Shown piece by piece: positions 1-11,544 of a stretch of DNA of 11,544 nucleotides. The notes under the pieces are model-generated. The model was not told the origin of the DNA. It was given only the letters and a program-made list of their open reading frames with translations, and made no database searches. How positions within the stretch are numbered: the first letter of the stretch is position 1; every line of letters begins with the position of its first letter. The stretch lies in the IMG/VR virus record IMGVR_UViG_2778261419_000002. The stretch is one strand, 5' to 3'. The DNA is from a virus (lineage: Duplodnaviria > Heunggongvirae > Uroviricota > Caudoviricetes). Made by a program: the position numbers and the translations under genes.

Positions 1-63
1 GTTCTGAATGGTACGGATACTCGCACCGAAAATGTCAGCCAGCTGCTTTTTGTTGACTTCCAT
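1..63 (-). CDS. nohA: Terminase small subunit Nu1-like, N-terminal 21 codons only (gene continues beyond window start)
   Basis: Minus strand translates from ATG at 63..61 as MEVNKKQLADIFGASIRTIQN, matching the N-terminus of lambda Nu1 as I recall it; upstream context GTGGAATGAACA-ATG also resembles lambda. Symbol could equally be nohD/nohQ. Confidence 0.85.
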   Translation of the reverse strand, partial: MEVNKKQLADIFGASIRTIQN

Positions 64-240
64 TGTTCATTCCACGGCCAAAAACAGAGAAAGGAAACGA
101 CAAAGGCCCAAAAGCTCGTTTTCAGCACCTGTCGTTTCCTTTCTTTTCAGGGGGTATTTTAAATAAAAACATTAAGTTACAACGAAGAAGAACGGAAATG
201 CCTTAAACCGGAAAATTTTTATAAATAGCGAAAACCCGCG

Positions 241-252
241 AGGTCGCCGCCC
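241..252. other. cosN cohesive-end sequence of a lambda-type cos site (cosB expected between here and the Nu1 start, about 64..240; cosQ side about 253..275)
   Basis: Plus strand aggtcgccgccc is the reverse complement of GGGCGGCGACCT, the lambda 12-nt cohesive end; flanking minus-strand sequence CGACAGGTTACG|GGGCGGCGACCTCGCGGGTTTTCGCTATTTAT closely resembles the lambda right-end/left-end junction from memory. Confidence 0.7.
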
Positions 253-451
253 CGTAACCTGTCGGATCGCCGGAAAGGACCCGCAAAATGATAATAATTA
301 TCATCTGCATGTCACAACGTGCATCTACGCAATCAAACCACGTCAAATAATCAATTATGACGCAGATATCGTATTAATTGATCTGCATCAACTTAACGTA
401 AAAACAACTTCAGACAATACAAATCAGCGACACTGAATACGGGACAACCTC

Positions 452-685
452 ATGTCAACGAAGAACAGAACCCGCAGAACAACAACCCGCAACATCCGCT
501 TTCCTAACCAAATGATTGAACAAATTAACATCGCTCTTGAGCAAAAAGGGTCCGGGAATTTCTCAGCCTGGGTCATTGAAGCCTGCCGCCGGAGACTGTG
601 CTCAGAAAAAAGAGTTTCTTCTGAAGCAAACAAAGAAAAGAGTGACATTACTGAATTGCTCAGAAAACAGGTCAGACCAGATTGA
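452..685 (+). CDS. ynfO: Small basic protein, probable ribbon-helix-helix DNA-binding fold (YnfO-like, 77 aa)
   Basis: ORF with ATG at 452; Arg/Thr-rich N-terminus followed by IRFPNQMIEQINIALEQKGSGNFSAWVIEACRRRL, which resembles an RHH (CopG/Arc-like) beta-strand plus two helices; weak SD. Size and position match K-12 Qin ynfO as I remember it. Confidence 0.55.
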   Translation: MSTKNRTRRTTTRNIRFPNQMIEQINIALEQKGSGNFSAWVIEACRRRLCSEKRVSSEANKEKSDITELLRKQVRPD

Positions 686-742
686 AGCAATTTAGATAAT
701 CGTGCAGACTACGCCCCCTCATATCACATGGAAGGTTTATCT

Positions 743-1153
743 ATGGATCAGGTAGTCATTTTTAAACAAATATTTGATAAAGTTCGAAACGATTTAAACT
801 ATCAATGGTTTTATTCTGAGCTAAAACGTCACAATGTCTCACATTACATTTACTATTTAGCCACAGAGAATGTTCATATTGTATTAAAAAATGATAATAC
901 AGTGTTATTAAAGGGCCTAAAAAACATTGTGTCTGTCAAATTTTCAAAGGATAGGCATCTTATAGAAACGACCTCTAATAAGCTGAAATCCAGAGAGATC
1001 ACATTTCAGGAATACAGAAGAAACCTTGCTAAAGCAGGAGTTTTTCGGTGGGTTACAAATATCCACGAACAAAAAAGATATTACTATACCTTTGATAATT
1101 CATTACTATTTACTGAAAGCATCCAGAAAACTACACAGATCTTACCACGCTAA
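743..1153 (+). CDS. ydfO: DUF1398-family prophage protein (YdfO/YbcV-like)
   Basis: ORF in track starts at 728, but the ATG at 743 is preceded by GGAAGG at 7-nt spacing, giving a 136-aa product; sequence matches my recollection of the YdfO/YbcV family. Confidence 0.65.
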
Positions 1154-1304
1154 ACCATAACGTCCGGCTTCTCTCACTCCTGAGCCGGACTGCATTGGTT
1201 TAATAAAAACCATCAACAATTGTGATTTAGATATTCGGAACCATTCAAATATAACAAAACCCCGTAAAAACGAGGTTTATGGATAAATTTTATTATTGAA
1301 TACA

Positions 1305-1481
1305 TCAGATTAAATTAATCTTGACATCATAGCTTTCAAGACCCGTCATTTTTTCCCGTGCGGTAAACTGAATACTGGTAACTTCTTTCCCGGTCTTTTT
1401 CTTAAGTTCAATAATTTTTTTTGTTATATATTCAGAAATATCTGCTTCTGCTTTTGTTTTTAAGTTTTCAATATTCATCAT
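1305..1481 (-). CDS. gnsB: GnsA/GnsB-family small protein, 58 aa (absent from the ORF track, which appears to have a size cutoff)
   Basis: Hand translation of minus strand from tandem ATGATG at 1481: MMNIENLKTKAEADISEYITKKIIELKKKTGKEVTSIQFTAREKMTGLESYDVKINLI, stop TGA at 1307..1305; strong SD AAAGAGGAAA immediately upstream; resembles GnsB from memory. Confidence 0.7.
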   Translation of the reverse strand: MMNIENLKTKAEADISEYITKKIIELKKKTGKEVTSIQFTAREKMTGLESYDVKINLI

Positions 1482-1649
1482 TTCCTCTTTTAGTCTGTTA
1501 TGACTTTCCAGTTACACAGTAAGTCGATTATATGGTGCAAACGTGTAAAAGATAAGATGAAACATCGCAATAATCAACATACGATAGTCTAAATTTTACA
1601 CAAACAGACAAAGAGAATTTTCCTGAATTATCAATGCAATAGCATCAAA

Positions 1650-1805
1650 TCAACTCAAGAGCCTTATTGCTGCTTCCAGAATTTCTTCTGAAGTAACATG
1701 TCGATCCGCGGCTACATAAATGACTTTATGATCTCCGGTCAGAGATGGAAACCCTGCGGCCATTACAGTAAGGTGTGTTTTTTCGCCATTTGGATATTCA
1801 CGCAT
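1650..1805 (-). CDS. ynfN: YnfN-like small prophage protein (51 aa from internal ATG; track ORF extends to 1841)
   Basis: ORF MREYPNGEKTHLTVMAAGFPSLTGDHKVIYVAADRHVTSEEILEAAIRLLS; I recall K-12 YnfN as 51 aa starting MREYPNGEK; GGAG lies upstream of this ATG. The longer 63-aa start at 1841 cannot be excluded. Confidence 0.5.
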   Translation of the reverse strand: MREYPNGEKTHLTVMAAGFPSLTGDHKVIYVAADRHVTSEEILEAAIRLLS

Positions 1806-1923
1806 GATGGTGTTAACTCCAGTCATCGCTGGCACTACCACTGCTGGTTCAGAGTTAAAAAAACTATGATTTTTTTCATGATGTTACCGTAGTATGTGAG
1901 TATCCATCGAATAGACACCAAGC

Positions 1924-1961
1924 AAAAAAGCTCCCGAAGGAGCCTTCATTTTCACTTTTTT
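1924..1961. terminator. Candidate bidirectional rho-independent terminator between cspI and ynfN
   Basis: Hairpin GCTCC-CGAA-GGAGC (1930..1943) flanked by an A-run upstream (1924..1929) and a T-rich tract downstream (cttcattttcactttttt), so a U-tract follows the stem on either strand. Confidence 0.45.
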
Positions 1962-2150
1962 AAATCCAACGACAGACGGCTGGCATTTAAGTATTGTGAA
2001 ATATTATCAAATGTAATCATCATTGATTTACAAAAGATACATTTTGCCCCGAAAGGATTCATGTCAGAAACATCAAAAGATGATGTTCTATACTGGGAAC
2101 CATGACAACACGGGCATCTAAAGTGAATATGGTTTGTAATATTGTCTACC

Positions 2151-2363
2151 TCAAAGCGCCACTACATGAACAGCGGCAGGACCTTTAGGTCCGTTCTCAA
2201 TACCAAATTCAACTTCCTGATTCTCAGTTAATGTTTTGAAATCGTTGCTCTGAATTGCTGAGAAATGGACAAACACATCTTTGCTGCCATCTTTCGGCGT
2301 GATGAAACCAAAACCTTTTTCAGGGTTAAACCATTTCACTAAACCAGTCATTTTGTTAGACAT
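2151..2363 (-). CDS. cspI: Cold-shock protein CspI (CspA family, 70 aa)
   Basis: Translation [70 protein letters not shown] contains the RNP1-like motif KGFGFI and the RNP2-like VFVHF of cold-shock domains. Confidence 0.9.
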
Positions 2364-2600
2364 AATTATTACCTTTTGAAGAAATTAGCCCTTGGGCAGA
2401 ATGGTCCGAAAAAAATATCAGAGAGAAAAACCAACAAGGAAATCTCAAGAGGTACAAATAATAAAATTATAACAATGACTGCTTCAGATAAATTTGTAAC
2501 AAACCAGAACACCATTAACGCATGATTAACCACCCATAGCAAGGATTACTTTTGTAAAGAAAAACACAGCAATGAAAGAATAGCTTTATTTATTAATAAA
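2364..2600 (-). promoter_or_regulatory. Probable cspI promoter and long AT-rich 5' UTR
   Basis: About 240 bp of AT-rich non-coding sequence upstream of cspI on the minus strand; CspA-family genes typically have long structured 5' leaders. Exact promoter elements not resolved. Confidence 0.35.
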
Positions 2601-2724
2601 ACGTGTCATTCTGATTAAGACCTTTTATCTTACCCTTAAGATTTCAGGAATTTTGGCTCATGGAAGAGTCCTTTTTATTTAAATTTTACATTCCGCGATG
2701 TAAATGTTCCGATTTAATATTACC

Positions 2725-3752
<1,028 letters not shown>

Positions 3753-3807
3753 GGATATTTATCAGGATGCTACCAATGAAAGATACTGGAAAGCCAACTG
3801 CAAAAAG

Positions 3808-4126: not shown

Positions 4127-4342
4127 TTACTCTCCCCGTGCAGCCTTACGCTTGTCTTCTTTAATCTTGAAATAAAGGTTTGTCAGATACGTCAGCATGC
4201 CAAATACCAGACTACCCAATACACCTATTGCCGCCCACTGTGAGGGCGTGACTTTATCGAGCAACTGTAAAAACCAGTAGCCAGCACTGCCTGCAGAGGT
4301 GCTGTAGGCGATGCCCGTTGTTAACTTATCCATGGATTTCAT
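4127..4342 (-). CDS. essQ: Class II holin of the phage 21 S type (pinholin), dual-start motif MKSM
   Basis: 71-aa product [71 protein letters not shown] with two TM segments and a charged C-terminus; strong SD GGAGGTGA before ATG at 4342; a second Met at codon 4 gives the classic antiholin/holin dual start. Track ORF extends further upstream without support. Confidence 0.85.
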
Positions 4343-4430
4343 AGCCTCACCTCCGCAGATAACGGATGGTGTACACGGTTTGGTTCGAAGAAGGAAAGAA
4401 GTTACATTAGCGTAAGGCCCGAACATCTAT

Positions 4431-4463
4431 TCAAAAAGAAAAACGCCAGCAATTATTCTGGCG
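4431..4463 (-). terminator. Rho-independent terminator downstream of the AraC-family gene, immediately upstream of the holin
   Basis: Minus strand reads CGCCAG-AATAATTG-CTGGCG followed by TTTTTCTTTTTG. Confidence 0.55.
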
Positions 4464-4532
4464 TAGCTAAAAATATCGTATAATCTTACACTTCAAAAAA
4501 TAACTTTATAAAATGCCATCACATCATATCTT

Positions 4533-5246
4533 CTAAGAAAATCTTGATAAATATTGGTGCGGAGGCACACCAAAATATCCTCTAAAAACACTTACAAAAT
4601 ATGATGCATTGTCATACCCGCATATTCCCGCCACCTTGCCGACAGTATGGTTACTGTAGATCAATAATCTTTGCGCCATCATCATTCGTTCTTCAAGAAT
4701 TAATTTACTAAACGATAATCCTTCGTCTTTTAATTTTCTTTTTAACAAACTCTCGCTCATATATAATCTTGAAGATATATCACAAAGTCTCCATGACGCT
4801 GAGATATCCGAGTGAATAATAGCCTTAACTTTACAACCTAAGCTATTAAGACTTCCGAACAAAAAACTTTGCACTATTTTCTCTGAAGATAAGACAGCAA
4901 GACATGCAAGTGATATTTGATTTCTAACTACATCCACGGTTTTGCTATCACAATTCAAGCATGCAACCAAGTTCTTTAACAATGAAAAATCTTCACATTC
5001 TACTATCAAGTATGACGGATAAAACCTTCTTACAGAAAAAGGTGAGAGTGTGTAGTTTTTAAAGAAATCATTAACTGTTTTCTCCTCAACATCTACGATC
5101 ATTAGATGATCTGTATTTGACGAAAAAAGATCTTTTAAATTGTATTCAATGAGAACAGTATTTCCTTTTTTAAACAAAATATCTTCTTTACCAATTCGGA
5201 CACCAAACGAGTTCAACACCAAAATGATAGAACATATGTATGGCAT
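4533..5246 (-). CDS. AraC/XylS-family transcriptional regulator (AppY/EnvY/GadX-like), AT-rich
   Basis: C-terminal region LLKRKLKDEGLSFSKLILEERMMMAQRLLIYSNHTVGKVAGICGYDNASYFVSVFRGYFGVPP has the two-HTH AraC signature; ATG at 5246 preceded by AGGTGGA, whereas the track start at 5255 is GTG; base composition is visibly more AT-rich than the flanking phage genes. Confidence 0.8.
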   Translation of the reverse strand: MPYICSIILVLNSFGVRIGKEDILFKKGNTVLIEYNLKDLFSSNTDHLMIVDVEEKTVNDFFKNYTLSPFSVRRFYPSYLIVECEDFSLLKNLVACLNCDSKTVDVVRNQISLACLAVLSSEKIVQSFLFGSLNSLGCKVKAIIHSDISASWRLCDISSRLYMSESLLKRKLKDEGLSFSKLILEERMMMAQRLLIYSNHTVGKVAGICGYDNASYFVSVFRGYFGVPPHQYLSRFS

Positions 5247-5652
5247 ATTATCCACCTGATATCATTGGGGTTACACCAGGTAAGTATAGGTGGAAAATCA
5301 ATATTCGCCAGTTCAACAATAAGGAAAATCTCATTGCATCACAACTATAAAACCATGTGTTTAACTCACAAAAAACAAATCATTAAACTAATCTGTTATA
5401 TTATAATATCTGCGTGCAATAATAATATTATATGCTCTTAATATTCACTTGAAATATCTTCATATAAAAACAGATTGAATAAAATCTTTTGGGGCTGGTA
5501 TGTTTACCAACATTAAATTGCATCTCAATGTTTTCTTTAGCGTGAACAGGATTTTTATAAAAACTGACACTATGAGCATCATAGCGTAGTTTTTACGATT
5601 GTAAATATCCTGCATACAGGAACTCATCACTTTCAGATGATATCGCATACAG

Positions 5653-6612
5653 TTAATTCACCATCAGTCTTAGAGCCAGTTCTTCCGGATAGGGATCGAA
5701 GTAATTCTGTGTAAGCAAGTAATCATTAGGATACTCACCCAGATAATGCTTCAGCAGAGTCAACGGCGCAAGAAGAGGCAATGTGCCAAAGCGATAGTTA
5801 AGTATAACCTCGCTCAACTCTTTACGCTGGCGTGTACTTAAGTAATTACTAAAATACCCCTGTATATGCATCAGCACATTCGTGTGATTTTTACGTGATG
5901 CTGGTTTTCTGAGAATCGCCATCAGATTATCACGATACACCTCAAAGTATGATTCAAGGTCCGCCCACTCGTGTATTGCAGCCACAAATGGTCCCATATC
6001 TTTATAGCCTGCCTGGCTATGCGCCAACAACTGAAGCTTATAACGACTATGAAAAGCTAATAACTCTCTTCTTGATAATTTCTCCTTGTAAAGGTGATTG
6101 AGCTCATGCAAAGCAAAAACTCTTTCAATAAAATTCTCACGAAGCACTGGATCATGTAATCGCCCATCCTCTTCAACCGGTAGCCAGGAAAACTTTTCCA
6201 TCAAAGTGCTCGTAAATAGTCCCACTCCATCTTTACGACCTCGATTACCATTTTCATCATAGACACGCACGCGCTCCATGCCACAGCTGGGAGATTTAGC
6301 ACAAACCACAAACCCCGATACATCCTTTAATTTGTCCATATAAGAACGACTAAACTCTGTCATTCTCTCTGTCACATCCTCATTCTGGTCGTGGCTGAAA
6401 CACATCCGTATATTTCCTTGCTTCGAGCGCACAAGTCGTAGAGCAGGACGCGGAACTGGCAGCCCTATAGCCATTTCCGGACATACTGGTCTGAATGTTA
6501 CCCATTCCACTAATTTGTCCATTAAAAAGTCATCTCTTTTGTGACCACCATCAAAACGAACAGCAGAACCGCCCAAACAACCGCTGATCCCAATCACAGG
6601 TTTTTTTATCAT
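5653..6612 (-). CDS. DUF523/DUF1722 fusion protein (TudS-like 2-thiouracil desulfidase family N-domain plus YbgA-like C-domain)
   Basis: 319-aa ORF; N-terminus KPVIGISGCLGGSAVRFDGG ... VCPEMAIGLPVPRP matches the conserved Cys-containing DUF523 motifs as I recall them; strong SD GGGGGAGG before ATG at 6612. Confidence 0.75.
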   Translation of the reverse strand: MIKKPVIGISGCLGGSAVRFDGGHKRDDFLMDKLVEWVTFRPVCPEMAIGLPVPRPALRLVRSKQGNIRMCFSHDQNEDVTERMTEFSRSYMDKLKDVSGFVVCAKSPSCGMERVRVYDENGNRGRKDGVGLFTSTLMEKFSWLPVEEDGRLHDPVLRENFIERVFALHELNHLYKEKLSRRELLAFHSRYKLQLLAHSQAGYKDMGPFVAAIHEWADLESYFEVYRDNLMAILRKPASRKNHTNVLMHIQGYFSNYLSTRQRKELSEVILNYRFGTLPLLAPLTLLKHYLGEYPNDYLLTQNYFDPYPEELALRLMVN

Positions 6613-6804
6613 TTCCTCCCCCTTGACTAATTCATTAACACATAAACTTTGTAGTGCACGGACTAAATTGCCTTTCTGGCTTCATCACTGACAATTTTTC
6701 TGTTATTGACTATTCCTAATATAGTAGGAAAGTTCTTTAAGTGATCGGTCGTACTCATCTATCTTTCATACTTACTCTCAACTATCAAAAGTACAGGATT
6801 TATT

Positions 6805-7329
6805 ATGAAGTTATGGCCTGTGTTGACTGGCATTGCACTCTCTTTCACTCTTATAGCATGTAAGGCCCCGACACCACCTAAAGGTGTGCAGCCGATTACA
6901 AATTTTGACGCCAACCGCTACCTCGGAAAATGGTATGAAATAGCTCGCCTCGAGAACTGGTTCGAACGTGGTCTGGAACAGGTCAGCGCTACTTATGAAA
7001 AACGGAACGACGGAGGGATTCGCGTACTTAACCGTGGATACGATCCAACGAAAAACAAATGGAGCGAGAGCGAAGGTAAAGCATACTTTACTGGAGATAC
7101 TAAAACTGCAGCGTTGAAAGTTTCGTTTTTTGGCCCCTTCTATGGTGGCTATAATGTAATCAAACTGGATGATGAGTATAAGTATGCTCTTGTCAGTGGT
7201 CCGAACAGAGAATACCTATGGATTCTGGCAAGGACCCAAACTATTCCAGATAATGTAAAAGCAGACTATGTGCGTACCGCTCAAAAGTTGGGATTCAATG
7301 TCAATGAACTATTATGGGTTAAACAATAA
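6805..7329 (+). CDS. Bacterial lipocalin Blc-like outer-membrane lipoprotein
   Basis: 174-aa ORF; signal peptide with lipobox LIAC then K at +2; motifs NFDANRYLGKWYEIARLENWFERG and KVSFFGPFYGGYNVI...YLWILART closely parallel E. coli Blc; SD AGGA 6 nt before ATG. Confidence 0.85.
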   Translation: MKLWPVLTGIALSFTLIACKAPTPPKGVQPITNFDANRYLGKWYEIARLENWFERGLEQVSATYEKRNDGGIRVLNRGYDPTKNKWSESEGKAYFTGDTKTAALKVSFFGPFYGGYNVIKLDDEYKYALVSGPNREYLWILARTQTIPDNVKADYVRTAQKLGFNVNELLWVKQ

Positions 7330-7354
7330 AATCCCCACCCGAAATGATACTTAT

Positions 7355-7384
7355 TAGAAAAAAACCAGCCTTTGGGGAGGCTGG
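7355..7384 (-). terminator. tR'-type rho-independent terminator downstream of Q (also lies just 3' of the convergent blc-like gene)
   Basis: Minus strand reads CCAGCCT-CCCCAA-AGGCTGG followed by TTTTTTTCT; located about 100 nt after the Q stop codon. Confidence 0.6.
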
Positions 7385-7484
7385 CTAAATCAGGAAACAA
7401 GCTGTTATATGATAATAACTACGTTGCGATTCCAACATTTAAAATGTTAGACTAATGAAAATCAGACAGCAACTTTTCCTTTAA
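7385..7484 (-). promoter_or_regulatory. Candidate Q-dependent late promoter (pR'-like) and Q-utilisation region
   Basis: Position between the Q stop and the terminator matches lambdoid pR' architecture; minus strand has TTGCTG-17nt-TAACAT, a possible -35/-10 pair. Assignment is positional, hexamers are weak. Confidence 0.3.
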
Positions 7485-7862
7485 TTATTTCGAACAATCA
7501 GCATCCATCTCCAATCGGAGATCCAACACCATCAGCATGCCCTCCACTACGCCCTCAGCTTTCTGGAGCATCCTGCCAACCCAACAATCAGATCGCCCAT
7601 GCTTACGTGCAAGCGCCATAAAAGTCATGCCGCCGACATAATAGTCCACCAATAAATCATGTAAATCGCTGTTGTTTTTTTTCAGGCGAGCCATACATTC
7701 ACAAATGATCATCGCGTCATCGTCACAGCATTGCGGACGAGATCTTACTTTTGAAGGAATTAATCCCTTAAAACCGGCGGCAATGGACGACCAGGTCACA
7801 TCTTCATGATTATTAGCCGCCCATGCCCCCCAACGCTCAAGAACCATCTGAATATCACGCAT
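7485..7862 (-). CDS. Late-gene antiterminator Q, phage 82 / QuuD-like family
   Basis: Translation from ATG at 7862: [76 protein letters not shown]... matches my recollection of DLP12 QuuD; track start at 7877 is a TTG extension; GGAG upstream of the ATG. Confidence 0.8.
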
Positions 7863-7879
7863 CAACTTACTCCACAAAA

Positions 7880-8929
7880 TTAGGCCAGCACACCAATTGC
7901 CAGCGCGCGATCGATAAATCGAAAAATCAGCTCCAGTTGGGAGCCATACTTCTCTTCAAATGCCACGGTATCCGTATGCAACTCGTCGTGATGCTTTCTG
8001 CACAAAGGCAACACAAAGAGATCATGTGCTTTGGTTCCCATTCCGCCCTGCCCGTGACCAATCAGATGATGCGGATCGTCGGCTGGCATACCGCAGCAAG
8101 CACACGGCTGTGTCTTAACCCAGCGTGTGTATTTCTCCTTAACCCAACGGTGACGTTTAGGCAGCTTCATGAAAGATTCCGGAGACTCTGGATCAACGGT
8201 GATGCTTACCACCGTCTTTTCTTGTGATGGGTTTTGTTGCTGGTGGGCGTGAGGCAACGGTGCAAGATTTTTTGTGCGCTGTTTCAGTATGCTGGTGGCG
8301 GTCTGCTCTCCCGGTACGATGTCGCTTTCACGGTACATTGAGCGGATTTTTTCCGCACGCAACCCCAGCGAACGACGTAATACCGCTTCCGGTAGCGCGT
8401 CCGCCACCTGATTGCGGACCGCCCACCAGGATAATTCAGCCAGAGATAATTCACGCTCCTGCGTACCGCTTATTGCGTGACCGATGACGTCAATCATCCA
8501 TGCTGACAGGTTTTGATGAGCTAGTTGCTCGAGTGATTCGGATGTCTGGTCACGCAGCTGGTTGTCGCAGTGCCAGCACAACACCATTGCGCCGGTACCA
8601 TAACGGTGAATGACGGTTTCGCTGTGATGATAATCGCCGTGTGGCCACTGGCAGGATTTAATATGGCGCAACAGCCAGTCAGACAATGCACCAGCACCAC
8701 CAGCAGCACGAATCACCCGTGCGTTACTGAAAAACGGCAGCAATGTTTTGTCTTCCACCAGCGGCTGGCGAGCGGCAGGAACGACCCCGGACGGCAGATT
8801 ACGCATGCTTTTCGGTTCCGGCTCCACCAGTAACCGGGTATTGTGGAATACCGGCATGGGTTCACGGCCCGGCTTAACGATCACCAGCCCGAGTTCCGGT
8901 ACCAGAACAGGTCGAAGTAATACCCGCAC
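7880..8929 (-). CDS. ydfU: DUF968-family prophage protein with C-terminal Cys/His (HNH-like) motif (YdfU-like)
   Basis: 349-aa ORF; start is GTG at 8929 with a strong SD (TGGAGGTAAC) 5 nt upstream; C-terminus contains CACCG...[10 protein letters not shown]...CRKHHDELH. Confidence 0.75.
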
Positions 8930-8930
8930 G

Positions 8931-9209
8931 TTACCTCCAGATGCGTTGCTGGAATGTGCGGGACGGACGCGGTGGGCGTTCGGAGTAAGGAAGCCTGACG
9001 GAGATTATCCAGTGACGGTAGTCGAGGCTAAGGGCTTTTTGAACCTCGCATCCGCGCCTGCGGTAACACTGAATGAGCCATTCGGCCTGTTCTTCAGTGC
9101 ATGGGGGATGCTGGTACCAGTCTGACTTAAATGCGTGAGAATACCGCTCGTGCGTGTGGGCAAGAACGGTCGAATTATCATGATTGTAATATTTTGCGTT
9201 GCGTGCCAT
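8931..9209 (-). CDS. Hypothetical 92-aa prophage protein, translationally coupled to the DUF968 gene
   Basis: ORF with ATG at 9209 and SD-like GGAG upstream; stop TAA at 8933..8931 lies 1 nt before the GTG start of the next gene; His/Cys-containing segment HTHERYSH...PPCTEE...QCYRRRGC. No family recognised. Confidence 0.45.
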   Translation of the reverse strand: MARNAKYYNHDNSTVLAHTHERYSHAFKSDWYQHPPCTEEQAEWLIQCYRRRGCEVQKALSLDYRHWIISVRLPYSERPPRPSRTFQQRIWR

Positions 9210-9275
9210 CGGTTTTCTCCGGTGGCACGGTGTTACTCAGCGGGAGTTCAGCCCCGCGCAAGATTGTAGATGAGT

Positions 9276-9527
9276 TTATTCTTCTGAAAAAGCAGAAAAG
9301 CCAGCTTTTATTCCGATCTCTTTCAATGCCTGTAATGAAGTGACAAACTCACCGTCGCGCAAGATAAATCCGTCCGTCACTCGGGCATCCACATAATTAA
9401 TTAACGCAGCCCCATTTTTTTGCAAACACACAATGCGGTAATGACTAGCAATATTTCCATTTTCAACGCACACAGCATAGAGGCCATCTTCACAAAAAAT
9501 TTTACGCAGTTCTTCGATGTTCATCAT
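9276..9527 (-). CDS. rem: Small prophage protein, Rem-like (83 aa)
   Basis: 83-aa ORF starting with tandem ATGATG preceded by GGAAGGA; size and position (between hokD and the DUF968 gene) match K-12 Qin rem as I remember it; sequence identity not verifiable here. Confidence 0.5.
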   Translation of the reverse strand: MMNIEELRKIFCEDGLYAVCVENGNIASHYRIVCLQKNGAALINYVDARVTDGFILRDGEFVTSLQALKEIGIKAGFSAFSEE

Positions 9528-9643
9528 CAGAATCCTTCCGGATAATTAGCTCTCCCCTTTAAGGGACCATCCCTCTTATCCCTGCGCGCTACTTAAGTAT
9601 TTTTGATTCTATTCCGGCACCATCCAGAACTTCAAATGCGTTG

Positions 9644-9675
9644 AAAATAAAAACAAAAACCCGCCGAAGCGGGTT
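9644..9675 (-). terminator. Rho-independent terminator of the relB-relE-hokD operon
   Basis: Minus strand reads AACCCGC-TTCG-GCGGGTT followed by TTTTGTTTTTATTTT. Confidence 0.6.
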
Positions 9676-9743
9676 AAGTGCGGGTGCGTTGAGGATGCCT
9701 GCCACATCAGAGGTGGCGAGGGATTTCTCACTCGCCGAGTCTC

Positions 9744-9899
9744 TTACTCCTCAGGTTCGTAAGCTGTGAAGACAGCGACCTCCGTCTGGCCGGTTCGGAT
9801 TCGTACCTCGCAGAGGTCTTTCCTCGTTACCAGTGCCGTCACTATGACGGTTAAACAGATGACGATCAGGGCGATTAACATCGCCTTTTGCTGCTTCAT
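9744..9899 (-). CDS. hokD: Hok-family type I toxin HokD (RelF), 51 aa (absent from the ORF track)
   Basis: Hand translation of minus strand: MKQQKAMLIALIVICLTVIVTALVTRKDLCEVRIRTGQTEVAVFTAYEPEE, a typical Hok single-TM peptide; SD AGGAG upstream of ATG at 9899. Confidence 0.85.
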   Translation of the reverse strand: MKQQKAMLIALIVICLTVIVTALVTRKDLCEVRIRTGQTEVAVFTAYEPEE

Positions 9900-9970
9900 A
9901 GCCTGCTTCTCCTGTCAACGCAAAGCAGAAGTGTCACCTTCGGTGCGAAACAGAGATGTCATGCTTTGGT

Positions 9971-10258
9971 TCAGAGAATGCGTTTGACCGCCTCGCTATA
10001 TACTTCCGAGCGTTCTCTTTTCCCAACAGAAATCACGAAAACGACAACTTTCTCGTCTATAACCTGGTATACAAGGCGATAGCCTGAAGACCGGAGCTTA
10101 ATCTTGTAACAATCAGGCATACCACGGAGCTTGTTTGCTTCAATCCGGGGTGACTCAAGTACTTCAACCAGCTTCTTTTTCAACTGTTCACGTACCGTCG
10201 AGCCCAGCTTTCGCCATTCCTTTAGTGCCCGCTCGTCAAAATCCAGAAAATACGCCAT
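9971..10258 (-). CDS. relE: Type II toxin RelE (ribosome-dependent mRNA endonuclease)
   Basis: 95-aa ORF MAYFLDFDERALKEWRKLGSTVREQLKKKLVEVLESPRIEANKLRGMPDCYKIKLRSSGYRLVYQVIDEKVVVFVISVGKRERSEVYSEAVKRIL; ATG overlaps the relB stop (ATGA). Confidence 0.9.
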   Translation of the reverse strand: MAYFLDFDERALKEWRKLGSTVREQLKKKLVEVLESPRIEANKLRGMPDCYKIKLRSSGYRLVYQVIDEKVVVFVISVGKRERSEVYSEAVKRIL

Positions 10259-10497
10259 CAGAGTTCATCCAGCGTCACACGTACTGGCTTAGGATTACGA
10301 AGCCGTTCTTTCACTATCTCCACAAGTTCAGCATCTTCATCACTCAGGAGTGTCTGTTTGAACGGCAAGCGTTCATTGTCAGCGATATACTCGAGCATGA
10401 GACGAAGCGCTTCAGAAGGAGTTACACCCATTTTTTCAAGCGCGGCGTAAGAACGCGCTTTAAGTTCATCGTCAATACGCAGGTTAATGCTACCCAT
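10258..10497 (-). CDS. relB: Type II antitoxin RelB (RHH repressor)
   Basis: 79-aa ORF MGSINLRIDDELKARSYAALEKMGVTPSEALRLMLEYIADNERLPFKQTLLSDEDAELVEIVKERLRNPKPVRVTLDEL; SD GAGGTG upstream; immediately 5' of relE. Confidence 0.9.
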   Translation of the reverse strand: MGSINLRIDDELKARSYAALEKMGVTPSEALRLMLEYIADNERLPFKQTLLSDEDAELVEIVKERLRNPKPVRVTLDEL

Positions 10498-10508
10498 GTC
10501 TTACACCT

Positions 10509-10534
10509 CTTGTAATTACAAATGTCATTACAAG
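10509..10534 (-). promoter_or_regulatory. relBE operator (relO) inverted repeats overlapping the operon promoter
   Basis: Perfect palindrome TTGTAATTACAA (10510..10521) followed by a related half-palindrome TGTCATTACAAG, directly upstream of the relB start; consistent with RelB/RelE autoregulation sites. Confidence 0.55.
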
Positions 10535-10827
10535 TATCGCACTACAACATGCTTAGGGCAAGTCACGAAGGAAGTCAGAAAGTAGTCGTAAGAACGGTGA
10601 TCACTGTCCGCTTTCTGCCAGGAGCAGCCATTGCTAAGTCCATCCTGTATTGTGCAGGTCAGCTCGTTTTTAAAGAGTCCGGCCATCATCTTACTGGTAC
10701 AGACACCATATACTTTGTGACGGTCAGGCTACATATGCACAACTCAACTTATTCATCTATTTTTTGCTTTAGCATGTCAGTGTTGCTTTCTCGTCGGCGG
10801 GTGAGCGGTGACCTGACCTGTCGATAA
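10522..10827 (+). CDS. ydfV: Doubtful 101-aa ORF (YdfV-like annotation); coding status uncertain
   Basis: Length and position (between relB and flxA, + strand) match the K-12 ydfV annotation as I recall it, but there is no convincing SD, it overlaps the relB promoter/operator, and the translation has no recognisable features. Confidence 0.25.
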   Translation: MSLQVSHYNMLRASHEGSQKVVVRTVITVRFLPGAAIAKSILYCAGQLVFKESGHHLTGTDTIYFVTVRLHMHNSTYSSIFCFSMSVLLSRRRVSGDLTCR

Positions 10828-10979
10828 AGGAACGTAACACGTTTTATGCAACACCCGCATGCGGCAGAAAATTATTGCCGAACGTTTACCCCTGTCAACA
10901 AGCTTTACTTTCTGAGGCGCGCCAGCCCGCGAGGAAAACAATCTGAACATCAAACAATTAATGACACAAGAAATACGAT

Positions 10980-11006
10980 TAAAGATTTTTTTGTTCATGC
11001 CGATAG
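10980..11006 (+). promoter_or_regulatory. Sigma-28 (FliA) class 3 flagellar promoter of flxA
   Basis: TAAAGATT (10980..10987), 11-nt spacer, GCCGATAG (10999..11006), matching the sigma-28 consensus TAAAGTTT-N11-GCCGATAA; SD AAGGAG follows. Confidence 0.6.
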
Positions 11007-11029
11007 TGCTTTTTTAAAAGGAGAAATCT

Positions 11030-11362
11030 ATGTCTGTCACAATTCAGGGAAATACCTCAACCGTTATTTCAAACAACTCCGCCCCGGAAGGAACATCAGA
11101 AATAGCCAAAATCACAAGACAAATTCAGGTGCTGACTGAAAAGCTTGGGAAAATCTCATCGGAAGAGGGGATGACGACACAGCAGAAAAAAGAAATGGCT
11201 GCATTGGTACAGAAGCAAATTGAAAGCCTCTGGGCTCAACTGGAGCAGTTGTTAAGGCAGCAGGCAGAGAAAAAGAATGAAGACGCGACAGTTCAGCCTG
11301 ATAAAAAAGAAGAGAAAAAAGACGATACAAATACCGCTGGCACCATTGATATTTACGTCTAA
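11030..11362 (+). CDS. flxA: FlxA, FliA-regulated protein (110 aa)
   Basis: ORF MSVTIQGNTSTVISNNSAPEGTSEIAKITRQIQVLTEKLGKISSEEGMTTQQKKEMAALVQKQIESLWAQLEQLLRQQAEKKNEDATVQPDKKEEKKDDTNTAGTIDIYV with SD AGGAG and an upstream sigma-28 promoter. Confidence 0.85.
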   Translation: MSVTIQGNTSTVISNNSAPEGTSEIAKITRQIQVLTEKLGKISSEEGMTTQQKKEMAALVQKQIESLWAQLEQLLRQQAEKKNEDATVQPDKKEEKKDDTNTAGTIDIYV

Positions 11363-11376
11363 GTGACAGCCGTATT

Positions 11377-11400
11377 GTGGCCCTCATCGGGCCACTTTTC
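11377..11400 (+). terminator. Rho-independent terminator of flxA
   Basis: GTGGCCC-TCATC-GGGCCAC followed by TTTTCG, 15 nt after the flxA stop. Confidence 0.55.
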
Positions 11401-11544
11401 GCCATCAGCCTTTTCTTTAAAGACATATTATCTTTGTATCATTTCTGATAGTTAACATTACAAGATATGAATCGCCACGGGTTTAACAGACACCTCAGAG
11501 TCATTTAAGATGGCTTAAAGAGAGGTGCCCATGAGCGGTAAGCG

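Follow-up and report, generated by a model that had tools for sequence, protein, structure and literature searches.

Prophage-borne regulators of the AraC family (AppY, PatE, PsrA/B) are known to tie acquired DNA to the acid-resistance and virulence circuits of Escherichia coli, and GadW, GadX, YdeO and AdiY likewise act on acid-resistance genes. We describe a gene of this kind, here called araC, on the minus strand at 4533..5246 of an 11,544-nucleotide stretch of viral DNA (IMG/VR record IMGVR_UViG_2778261419_000002; “the window” denotes this whole stretch). A first-pass annotation had read the gene as a candidate modulator of host regulons delivered by a prophage. Its premise, that prophage AraC regulators control acid-resistance or virulence regulons, agrees with the literature: PatE, PsrA/B and AppY activate gadE/hdeA and the AR2 acid-resistance system (PMC10877973, PMC10057817), and PsrA and PsrB influence type III secretion as well as acid resistance by way of gadE and yhiF (PMC10877973). 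The window gene is intact and under selection, its product is an AraC-type DNA-binding protein of two domains, and it lies in a mobile module of the late region, with conserved cis elements and a predicted terminator. It represents a distinct, uncharacterised clade within this well-known regulator group. New here are its relationship to PatE, the module and its spread, the evidence of selection, and the conserved promoter-like footprints.

The list of open reading frames (ORFs) gave the gene as 4533..5255 (minus strand, 240 aa) with a GTG start. The true start is the ATG at 5246 (714 nt, 237 aa), as the Shine-Dalgarno sequence, the RefSeq annotation and the family-wide N-terminus all indicate. 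In RefSeq, other E. coli genomes carry this 714-nt gene under the name “helix-turn-helix domain-containing protein” (WP_001146314.1), from which the window protein differs by a single residue change (T30A), and its N-terminus M-P-Y-I-C-S-I-I fits the M-x-x-x-C-S-[VI] start of PatE, GadW, AppY and YdeO. The two features concerned are:

4533..5246, minus strand: coding sequence of a PatE-like AraC/XylS-family regulator, with an N-domain at residues ~1-135 and a double helix-turn-helix (HTH) DNA-binding domain at ~136-237.
5257-5252, minus strand: Shine-Dalgarno sequence AGGTGG, 5 nt 5′ of the ATG at 5246 and invariant in the upstream-region alignments.

The C-terminal double HTH of AraC/XylS type read from the translation was recovered by profile search, with Pfam HTH_18 (59.9 bits, cutoff 33.6, 3e-16) and HTH_AraC (42.6 bits, cutoff 26.6, 6e-11) both above their cutoffs over residues 161-237. 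PHROG 1450 (function unknown) matched the full length of the product (6e-97). The best NCBIfam alignment was to the YdeO model (full-length, 112 bits; equivalog cutoff 348), followed by partial matches to the HilD and GadX models (GadX 90 bits; equivalog cutoff 500), and at scores this far under the curated cutoffs the protein does not qualify as a YdeO or GadX equivalog. Sequence comparison with solved structures ranked the DNA-binding domain of GadX first, ahead of CsvR, Rns and ToxT. The window allele stops six residues before the 243-aa alleles, at a point past the end of the HTH domain. Neither truncation nor frameshift was found: homologues of 237-253 aa align with the protein from end to end, and 78 of the 80 copies in IMG/VR are intact ORFs (237-248 aa). 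The gene almost certainly encodes a functional AraC-family transcription factor.

The AlphaFold model (14 sequences; predicted local distance difference test [pLDDT] 87.5, predicted template modelling score [pTM] 0.77) begins with a small N-domain rich in beta structure, which a helical linker joins to a DNA-binding domain of seven helices (136-236). This modelled domain superposes on the GadX domain 3mkl (template modelling score [TM] 0.87-0.90, root-mean-square deviation 1.2-1.5 Å) and also on the MarA, AraC and AdpA domains, and as predicted it has the seven-helix AraC/XylS DNA-binding fold. Full-length Foldseek matches were CsvR, Rns and ToxT (probability 1.0, E 4e-11 to 2e-7), at a TM of just 0.40-0.45 because the domain arrangement differs. 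Rns-like fatty-acid sensing was considered on the basis of the Rns ligand-pocket residues H20 and R75, which lie between the N-domain and the DNA-binding domain. The profile alignment begins at Rns residue 97-98 (query residue 68-69); the window N-domain is ~29 residues shorter than that of Rns, so that no counterpart of the segment with the fatty-acid ligand residue H20 could be aligned. Sensing of this type was not supported by the profile alignment, and no evidence that the protein binds fatty acids was found.

To place the protein among characterised AraC regulators, reference proteins were taken from the K-12 and O157:H7 Sakai genomes, and amino acid identity to the window protein was as follows:

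PatE (ECs0287): 48% over all 237 residues; N-domain 35%, DNA-binding domain 65%.
PsrA (ECs1087, N-terminus extended): 37-38% overall; N-domain 24%, DNA-binding domain 54%.
GadW: 33% overall (blastp aligns residues 1-232); N-domain 24%, DNA-binding domain 45%.
AppY: 29-30% overall (blastp aligns residues 1-235); N-domain 22%, DNA-binding domain 38%.
YdeO: 28-29% overall (blastp aligns residues 1-229); N-domain 20%, DNA-binding domain 40%.
GadX: blastp alignment confined to the DNA-binding domain; N-domain 16%, DNA-binding domain 40%.
EnvY: 26% overall (31% in the local blastp alignment of residues 43-235); N-domain 14%, DNA-binding domain 41%.

PatE was thus the closest match in the protein search that the annotation had proposed, and Salmonella AdiY was 32% identical. 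The N-domain had been likened to those of AppY, EnvY, GadX and PatE. This stood for PatE and AppY, and also for GadW and YdeO (colinear at 48, 30, 33 and 29%, respectively); for GadX the likeness is limited to the DNA-binding domain, and EnvY is 14% identical in the N-domain. By its full-length colinear homology, including the short ~130-aa N-domain, the protein groups with the PatE/Psr/GadW/AppY/YdeO subgroup on alignment, across which C5, S6 and an SES-L-K motif are invariant. The recognition-helix motif SESLLK and K169 are likewise invariant, and the first recognition helix (SESLLKRKLK) is nearly the same as in PatE. The counterpart of K169 in AppY is the DNA-contact lysine K170, where the change K170E causes loss of DNA binding (PMC10057817). 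Because PatE alleles are 83-98% identical to one another and the window protein is 48-50% identical to ECs0287, P0016 and P0017, it is by this measure not a PatE orthologue and forms a separate clade. PMC10877973 reports “six additional Psr homologs” from a pangenome analysis; the window clade may be among them.

The genomic setting confirmed that the gene is prophage-borne, as had been claimed. Over 11.5 kb the window matches strain 13P484A at 99% identity; it is a Qin-like lambdoid E. coli prophage, and the neighbours of araC in it include flxA, relBE, hokD, rem, ydfU, Q, a holin gene, ydfR, a lysozyme gene, rzpQ and cspI. When compared with K-12 Qin by blastn the flanks are colinear (1-3762 at 98.5% and 7880-11468 at 96%) and nothing between them matches; at the same position K-12 Qin carries ydfT (a different Q)-ynfS-cspF-cspB-ynfU. 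In the window this place is taken by a Q-blc-rudS-araC module, of which araC is the last gene, just upstream of the holin gene and reading in the late-operon direction:

4372..7879, minus strand: Q-blc-rudS-araC module differing from K-12 Qin (blastn).
7485..7877, minus strand: late antiterminator Q of PF06530 type (Pfam 8e-51), first gene of the swapped module.
7386-7363, minus strand: intrinsic terminator resembling tR′, ~100 nt 3′ of Q (terminator scan; dG −14.9 kcal/mol, z −4.3).
6805..7329, plus strand: blc, Blc-type outer-membrane lipocalin lipoprotein (Lipocalin_2 7.5e-43; NCBIfam NF007786 312.6 bits, cutoff 267).
5653..6612, minus strand: rudS, TudS-DUF1722 fusion of 319 aa (Pfam PF04463 and PF08349; PGAP label “YbgA family protein”).
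4464-4443, minus strand: intrinsic terminator ~70 nt after the araC stop and before the holin gene (terminator scan; dG −11.3 kcal/mol, z −3.25).
4127..4342, minus strand: class II holin, EssD/EssQ-like (Pfam PF04971 and RefSeq annotation of the locus), first lysis gene after the cargo.

As an observation in its own right, 4372-7879 is a clear case of “Q plus its downstream morons” exchanged as one unit. Placed between Q and rudS, blc is antisense to the late transcript, and polymerase on the late operon would have to cross it in that orientation. In amino acids the window RudS matches gp66 of phage 1H12 at 92% identity. This phage protein, RudS_vir, was cloned and tested in PMC11417400, the paper defining RudS as a tRNA 4-thiouridine desulfidase, which makes no mention of the adjoining AraC gene (gp67 of 1H12, annotated as hypothetical). 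The window gene is therefore prophage cargo of RudS type, able to alter host tRNA modification and the near-UV response. None of the three cargo proteins matched a defence system in PADLOC.

Strain ECONIH1 has this module, with its gene order unchanged, in a DLP12-like prophage, in what we take to be the slot of nmpC in K-12; the free phages 1H12 (Jouyvirus) and IdasGreatGrand have it too. Among the 80 IMG/VR contigs with the gene, 70 show the order Q, blc, rudS, araC and holin with blc alone reversed; most of the other 10 probably reflect contig ends, as several of the 80 loci run off a short contig. The relative at 59% identity lies in late orientation immediately after a lambda-type Q (PF03589), with its contig ending on the other side, and that at 50% (84% identical to PatE) lies, also in late orientation, between a PF06323-type Q and a holin gene, neither with blc or rudS nearby. 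Counting the window gene, three unrelated Q families precede this clade in the same slot. In Sakai, PsrA of prophage Sp4 likewise follows Q, and PatE is found at the insertion sequence-scarred end of the degraded prophage Sp1. The position of the 59% and 50% relatives and of PsrA suggests that the Q-holin slot is typical of this AraC clade; it is also where stx sits in Stx phages. A variable slot between colinear flanks, together with a GC content of 33% against 47% in the neighbouring phage genes, marks araC as moron, or lysogenic-conversion, cargo.

Upstream sequences were compared among four alleles, among six relatives including patE of Sakai, and across 75 loci that gave 31 unique intergenic sequences. 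The first-pass annotation had described about 400 bp of AT-rich upstream sequence; the region is indeed 406 bp long, but not all of it is upstream regulatory DNA, as the stretch furthest from araC flanks rudS on its 3′ side. In the alignments this AT-rich DNA was variable except for two conserved islands, and the following features were recorded:

5247..5652, minus strand: AT-rich intergenic region from the rudS stop to the araC start (30.8% GC).
5283..5311, minus strand: candidate proximal promoter (−10 TATACT at 5288-5283, −35 CTGGCG at 5311-5306, 17-nt spacer).
5578..5605, minus strand: distal block TTTACA-16 nt-TATGAT, sigma-70-promoter-like (promoter scan, 10/12 consensus matches).
5555..5595, minus strand: strong hairpin with A-tract and U-tract flanks, overlapping the distal block.

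The proximal island (5299-5280, TTCCACCTATACTTAC) is one of two invariance peaks among the 31 intergenic sequences. It contains the candidate −10 element (context CCTATACTTAC), with a predicted 5′ untranslated region (UTR) of ~30 nt, and its TATACTT, ~37 nt upstream of the ATG, is invariant in all six aligned relatives, patE of Sakai included. The window clade carries a C at −13 before TATACT and TA after it, which are sigma-S-type extended −10 features, and the putative proximal −10 accordingly resembles a sigma-S-type element. The distal island (5605-5586), right after rudS, is the highest invariance peak of the region, and the distal block is near-invariant even in the divergent 1H12 allele, where the flanks have drifted; were it active, transcripts starting there would carry a 5′ UTR of ~325 nt. 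The overlapping hairpin is strong in the window allele (dG −16.0 to −17.5 kcal/mol, z −6.6 to −7.0), and with its U-run is a possible intrinsic terminator of rudS. In other alleles the same hairpin is weak (−9.2 kcal/mol in one; −4.5 kcal/mol with z −0.4 in another), which suggests that what is conserved is more likely a promoter-like or protein-binding sequence than the stem. A 54-55-nt AT-rich insertion at ~5438-5492 (minus strand) distinguishes the 409-nt intergenic class, which includes the window allele, from the 352-355-nt class (ECONIH1 DLP12-like prophage, 1H12 and IdasGreatGrand). Of two further candidates in this region, a 62-aa ORF at 5460-5648 (minus strand) was rejected, its frame being broken in other alleles by a 1-nt indel near its start; pairing of an anti-Shine-Dalgarno CCACCT (5288-5293) with AGGTGG (5252-5257) in long transcripts is no more than a hint, as the fold was no better than shuffled sequence (z ~−0.8). 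An Rfam scan of the 4533-5652 region found no RNA family.

These elements bear on the possibility that araC is in essence a late-operon gene, expressed mainly on Q antitermination and serving to reprogramme a dying host for the lytic programme, not for lysogenic conversion. Its conserved position and orientation between Q and holin after three unrelated Q families, in the slot occupied by stx in Stx phages, and the tR′-like terminator after Q are all consistent with such a role, yet the gene has conserved promoter-like elements and a predicted terminator of its own and has been kept in defective prophages (Qin-like and DLP12-like). The characterised relatives also point away from purely lytic expression: according to PMC10877973, patE deletion has a phenotype, psrA deletion raises activity of the type III secretion system and is complemented in trans, and patE expression, like that of rpoS, is higher in stationary phase. 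On balance we regard mainly lytic expression as improbable. For cargo in the Q-holin slot, Q-modified polymerase starting downstream of Q would read through araC after induction, and expression in a lysogen would need a promoter of the gene's own.

Megablast placed the araC locus in 976 of 5426 complete E. coli genomes (18%), always on the chromosome. Two main identity bands were seen (339 genomes at at least 99%, 539 genomes at 80-90%), and carriers include E. coli HS, 28Eco12, ECONIH1 and viable temperate phages; 28Eco12 and ECONIH1 are presumably sequence type ST131. In a scan of species-representative genomes the single close match (85% identical) was a 3.2-kb contig, JARKOR010000151.1, of a “Candidatus Nanosynbacter” metagenome-assembled genome, which is probably mis-binned E. 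coli phage DNA. Protein clusters by identity to the window protein were:

98% identical: 237 aa, 1532 sequences.
85% identical: 243 aa, 1131 sequences.
76% identical: 243 aa, 449 sequences.
59% identical: 244 aa, 12 sequences.
50% identical: 244 aa, 9 sequences.
48% identical (PatE): 247 aa, 1788 sequences.

Against three module-sharing alleles, the ratio of nonsynonymous to synonymous divergence (dN/dS) of araC was 0.20-0.22 at a synonymous divergence (dS) of 0.32-0.58, indicating purifying selection. The adjacent rudS is less diverged (dS 0.04-0.29), and this inequality indicates recombination breakpoints between the two genes, which recombine independently. Such independence weighs against a purely local regulator whose main targets would be rudS, blc or the phage late and lysis genes instead of host regulons. 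AraC-family regulators do often control adjacent genes, araC travels with blc and rudS as a module in 70 of the 80 viral contigs and in three allelic backgrounds, and the most conserved intergenic block stands directly after rudS; but the 59% and 50% relatives, PatE and PsrA have neither rudS nor blc adjoining, and the characterised members of the group act on distant host promoters. We therefore consider local control as the main role to be unlikely.

In base composition the gene is markedly AT-rich, as had been noted: its coding sequence (4533-5246) has 33.2% GC (30.3% at third codon positions [GC3]) against 42.7% for the whole window, where rudS stands at 43% and Q at 47%, and the 406-bp intergenic region (5247-5652) is at 30.8%. 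Of all 1120-nt windows in the sequence, 1.8% are as AT-rich as 4533-5652, which at 1.1 kb is the part of the window richest in AT. The locus thus has the high AT content expected of an H-NS-silenced xenogeneic gene. The high-affinity H-NS nucleation motif TCGATAAATT is not enriched in the window sequence (16 matches against 19 expected, 0 inside 5247-5652), which leaves AT content and precedent as the grounds for H-NS: expression of appY depends on H-NS among other regulators (PMC10057817). The AT-richness of gene and upstream region could mean that araC is a silent passenger, that is, xenogeneic DNA under H-NS silencing with no current function for host or phage. Truncated alleles do exist elsewhere (a 195-aa cluster and fragments of 131-133 aa), and literature searches on the protein, its accessions, its context and PHROG 1450 found no paper, and thus no reported function. 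Against this, dN/dS is ~0.2 across alleles at dS 0.3-0.6, the ORF is intact in 78 of the 80 viral contigs, the locus persists in 18% of complete E. coli genomes, and both the Shine-Dalgarno sequence and the −10 element are conserved. A functionless passenger is, on this evidence, very doubtful.

In the account that we favour, araC is a late-region moron of a Qin-like prophage and encodes a functional factor of the PatE/Psr/GadW/AppY/YdeO subgroup. In a lysogen it would probably be transcribed from its own promoter, with the TATACT −10 element ~37 nt upstream and possibly the distal TTTACA/TATGAT block, while H-NS, by analogy, would likely bind and damp the 31% GC DNA around these promoters; induction of the prophage would in addition bring read-through of araC by Q-modified RNA polymerase. 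Probable binding sites of the protein are host promoters of high AT content, with those of the acid fitness island (gadE, hdeAB and gadY) the likeliest, and the outcome would be higher acid resistance with secondary effects on other regulons, as with PatE, PsrB and AppY. These targets are suggested by the convergence of the characterised close relatives (PatE, PsrA/B, AppY, GadW, GadX, YdeO and AdiY) on acid-resistance genes, and by that analogy the window protein probably activates host acid resistance. Several points weigh against the account. At 48% identity to PatE (35% in the N-domain), targets and signals could differ, and the NCBIfam scores fall far below the YdeO and GadX equivalog cutoffs. 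Both araC promoters are predictions, the proximal −35 CTGGCG being weak (3/6 matches) and the distal block overlapping the possible rudS terminator hairpin, and there is the lack of H-NS motif enrichment in the window sequence. Literature searches by accession and context found no experimental work on the window protein. Taken as a whole, from AraC factor and moron cargo through its own promoter and H-NS damping to acid fitness island targets, we judge the account to be slightly better than an even bet, and the earlier reading as a modulator of host regulons is supported at the level of a candidate.

A more far-reaching variant would make Q-blc-rudS-araC one stress-protection unit under the AraC protein, which would coordinate the cargo with the host acid-fitness regulon. 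Its diverged N-domain might sense a signal such as stationary phase, acid or membrane/lipid stress; among the cargo, RudS removes near-UV-sensitive tRNA 4-thiouridine and Blc is an envelope lipocalin. Given the Q-to-holin slot, prophage induction would also fire araC. We think such a unit unlikely; were it real, phage development would be coupled to host stress regulons in about one-fifth of E. coli strains. Should the favoured account of gadE/hdeAB activation hold, the locus would count as a widespread determinant of acid survival in gut passage, variable from strain to strain, and as a tractable example of a regulator moving between phages in a swappable “Q + cargo” module. It adds a data point, not a new principle, and is unlikely to surprise a specialist.

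Some observations stand apart from this argument. The window also holds the prophage genes ynfO, ydfO and gnsB, and an Rfam cspA thermoregulator at 2124-2508 (minus strand; 114 bits, E 3e-29) that covers cspI and its leader. For psrA of Sakai (ECs_1087, 18677-19390 on the plus strand of the extracted locus), the annotated coding sequence is 195 aa long, and its frame matches the family N-terminus (MVVVCSVIM...) 126 nt further 5′, suggesting that the annotated start is too far downstream. Two further ideas were rejected. The “PatE” CIW80_12240 of E. coli Nissle (bioRxiv 10.1101/2025.08.01.668021) is not an orthologue of the window gene; it is gadW, because the tag lies two genes from gadA (CIW80_12250) and both quantitative PCR primers of the preprint map within K-12 gadW (5891-6619 of the extracted K-12 locus) with 1-2 mismatches (RefSeq numbering of the Nissle CIW80 tags differs from GenBank numbering). 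A pairing of Salmonella pathogenicity island 2 (SPI-2) orf319 (RudS_ST) with an AraC homologue was not borne out, as the Salmonella match is AdiY, encoded between adiA and adiC.

Of the described systems, PatE (Z0321/ECs0287), the prophage-encoded acid-resistance activator of E. coli O157:H7, is the nearest. The two proteins share a full-length alignment, the M-x-x-x-C-S N-terminus and the helix SESLLKRKLK, their genes share the upstream TATACTT and Shine-Dalgarno elements, and the PatE relative P0016 (84% identical to PatE) occupies the same Q-to-holin slot as the window gene; the window protein differs in being 10 residues shorter at the C-terminus, with 35% identity in the N-domain, and blc and rudS accompany its gene but not that of PatE. 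PsrA/PsrB, the prophage-encoded secretion regulators of O157:H7 (ECs1087 and its paralogue), offer the parallel of PsrA as an AraC regulator downstream of Q in a lambdoid prophage, whereas the window has blc and rudS instead and its locus is also carried by E. coli HS, a commensal. Rns, CsvR and ToxT, fatty-acid-responsive AraC regulators of virulence whose full-length structures have been solved, are the best full-length structural matches, and profile homology to them reaches into the N-domain. AppY (of DLP12 in K-12), GadW and YdeO are, like the window protein, colinear two-domain proteins (242-253 aa), and with AdiY and GadX they are 28-33% identical to it, but appY lies at the far end of DLP12, whereas the window araC lies between Q and holin.

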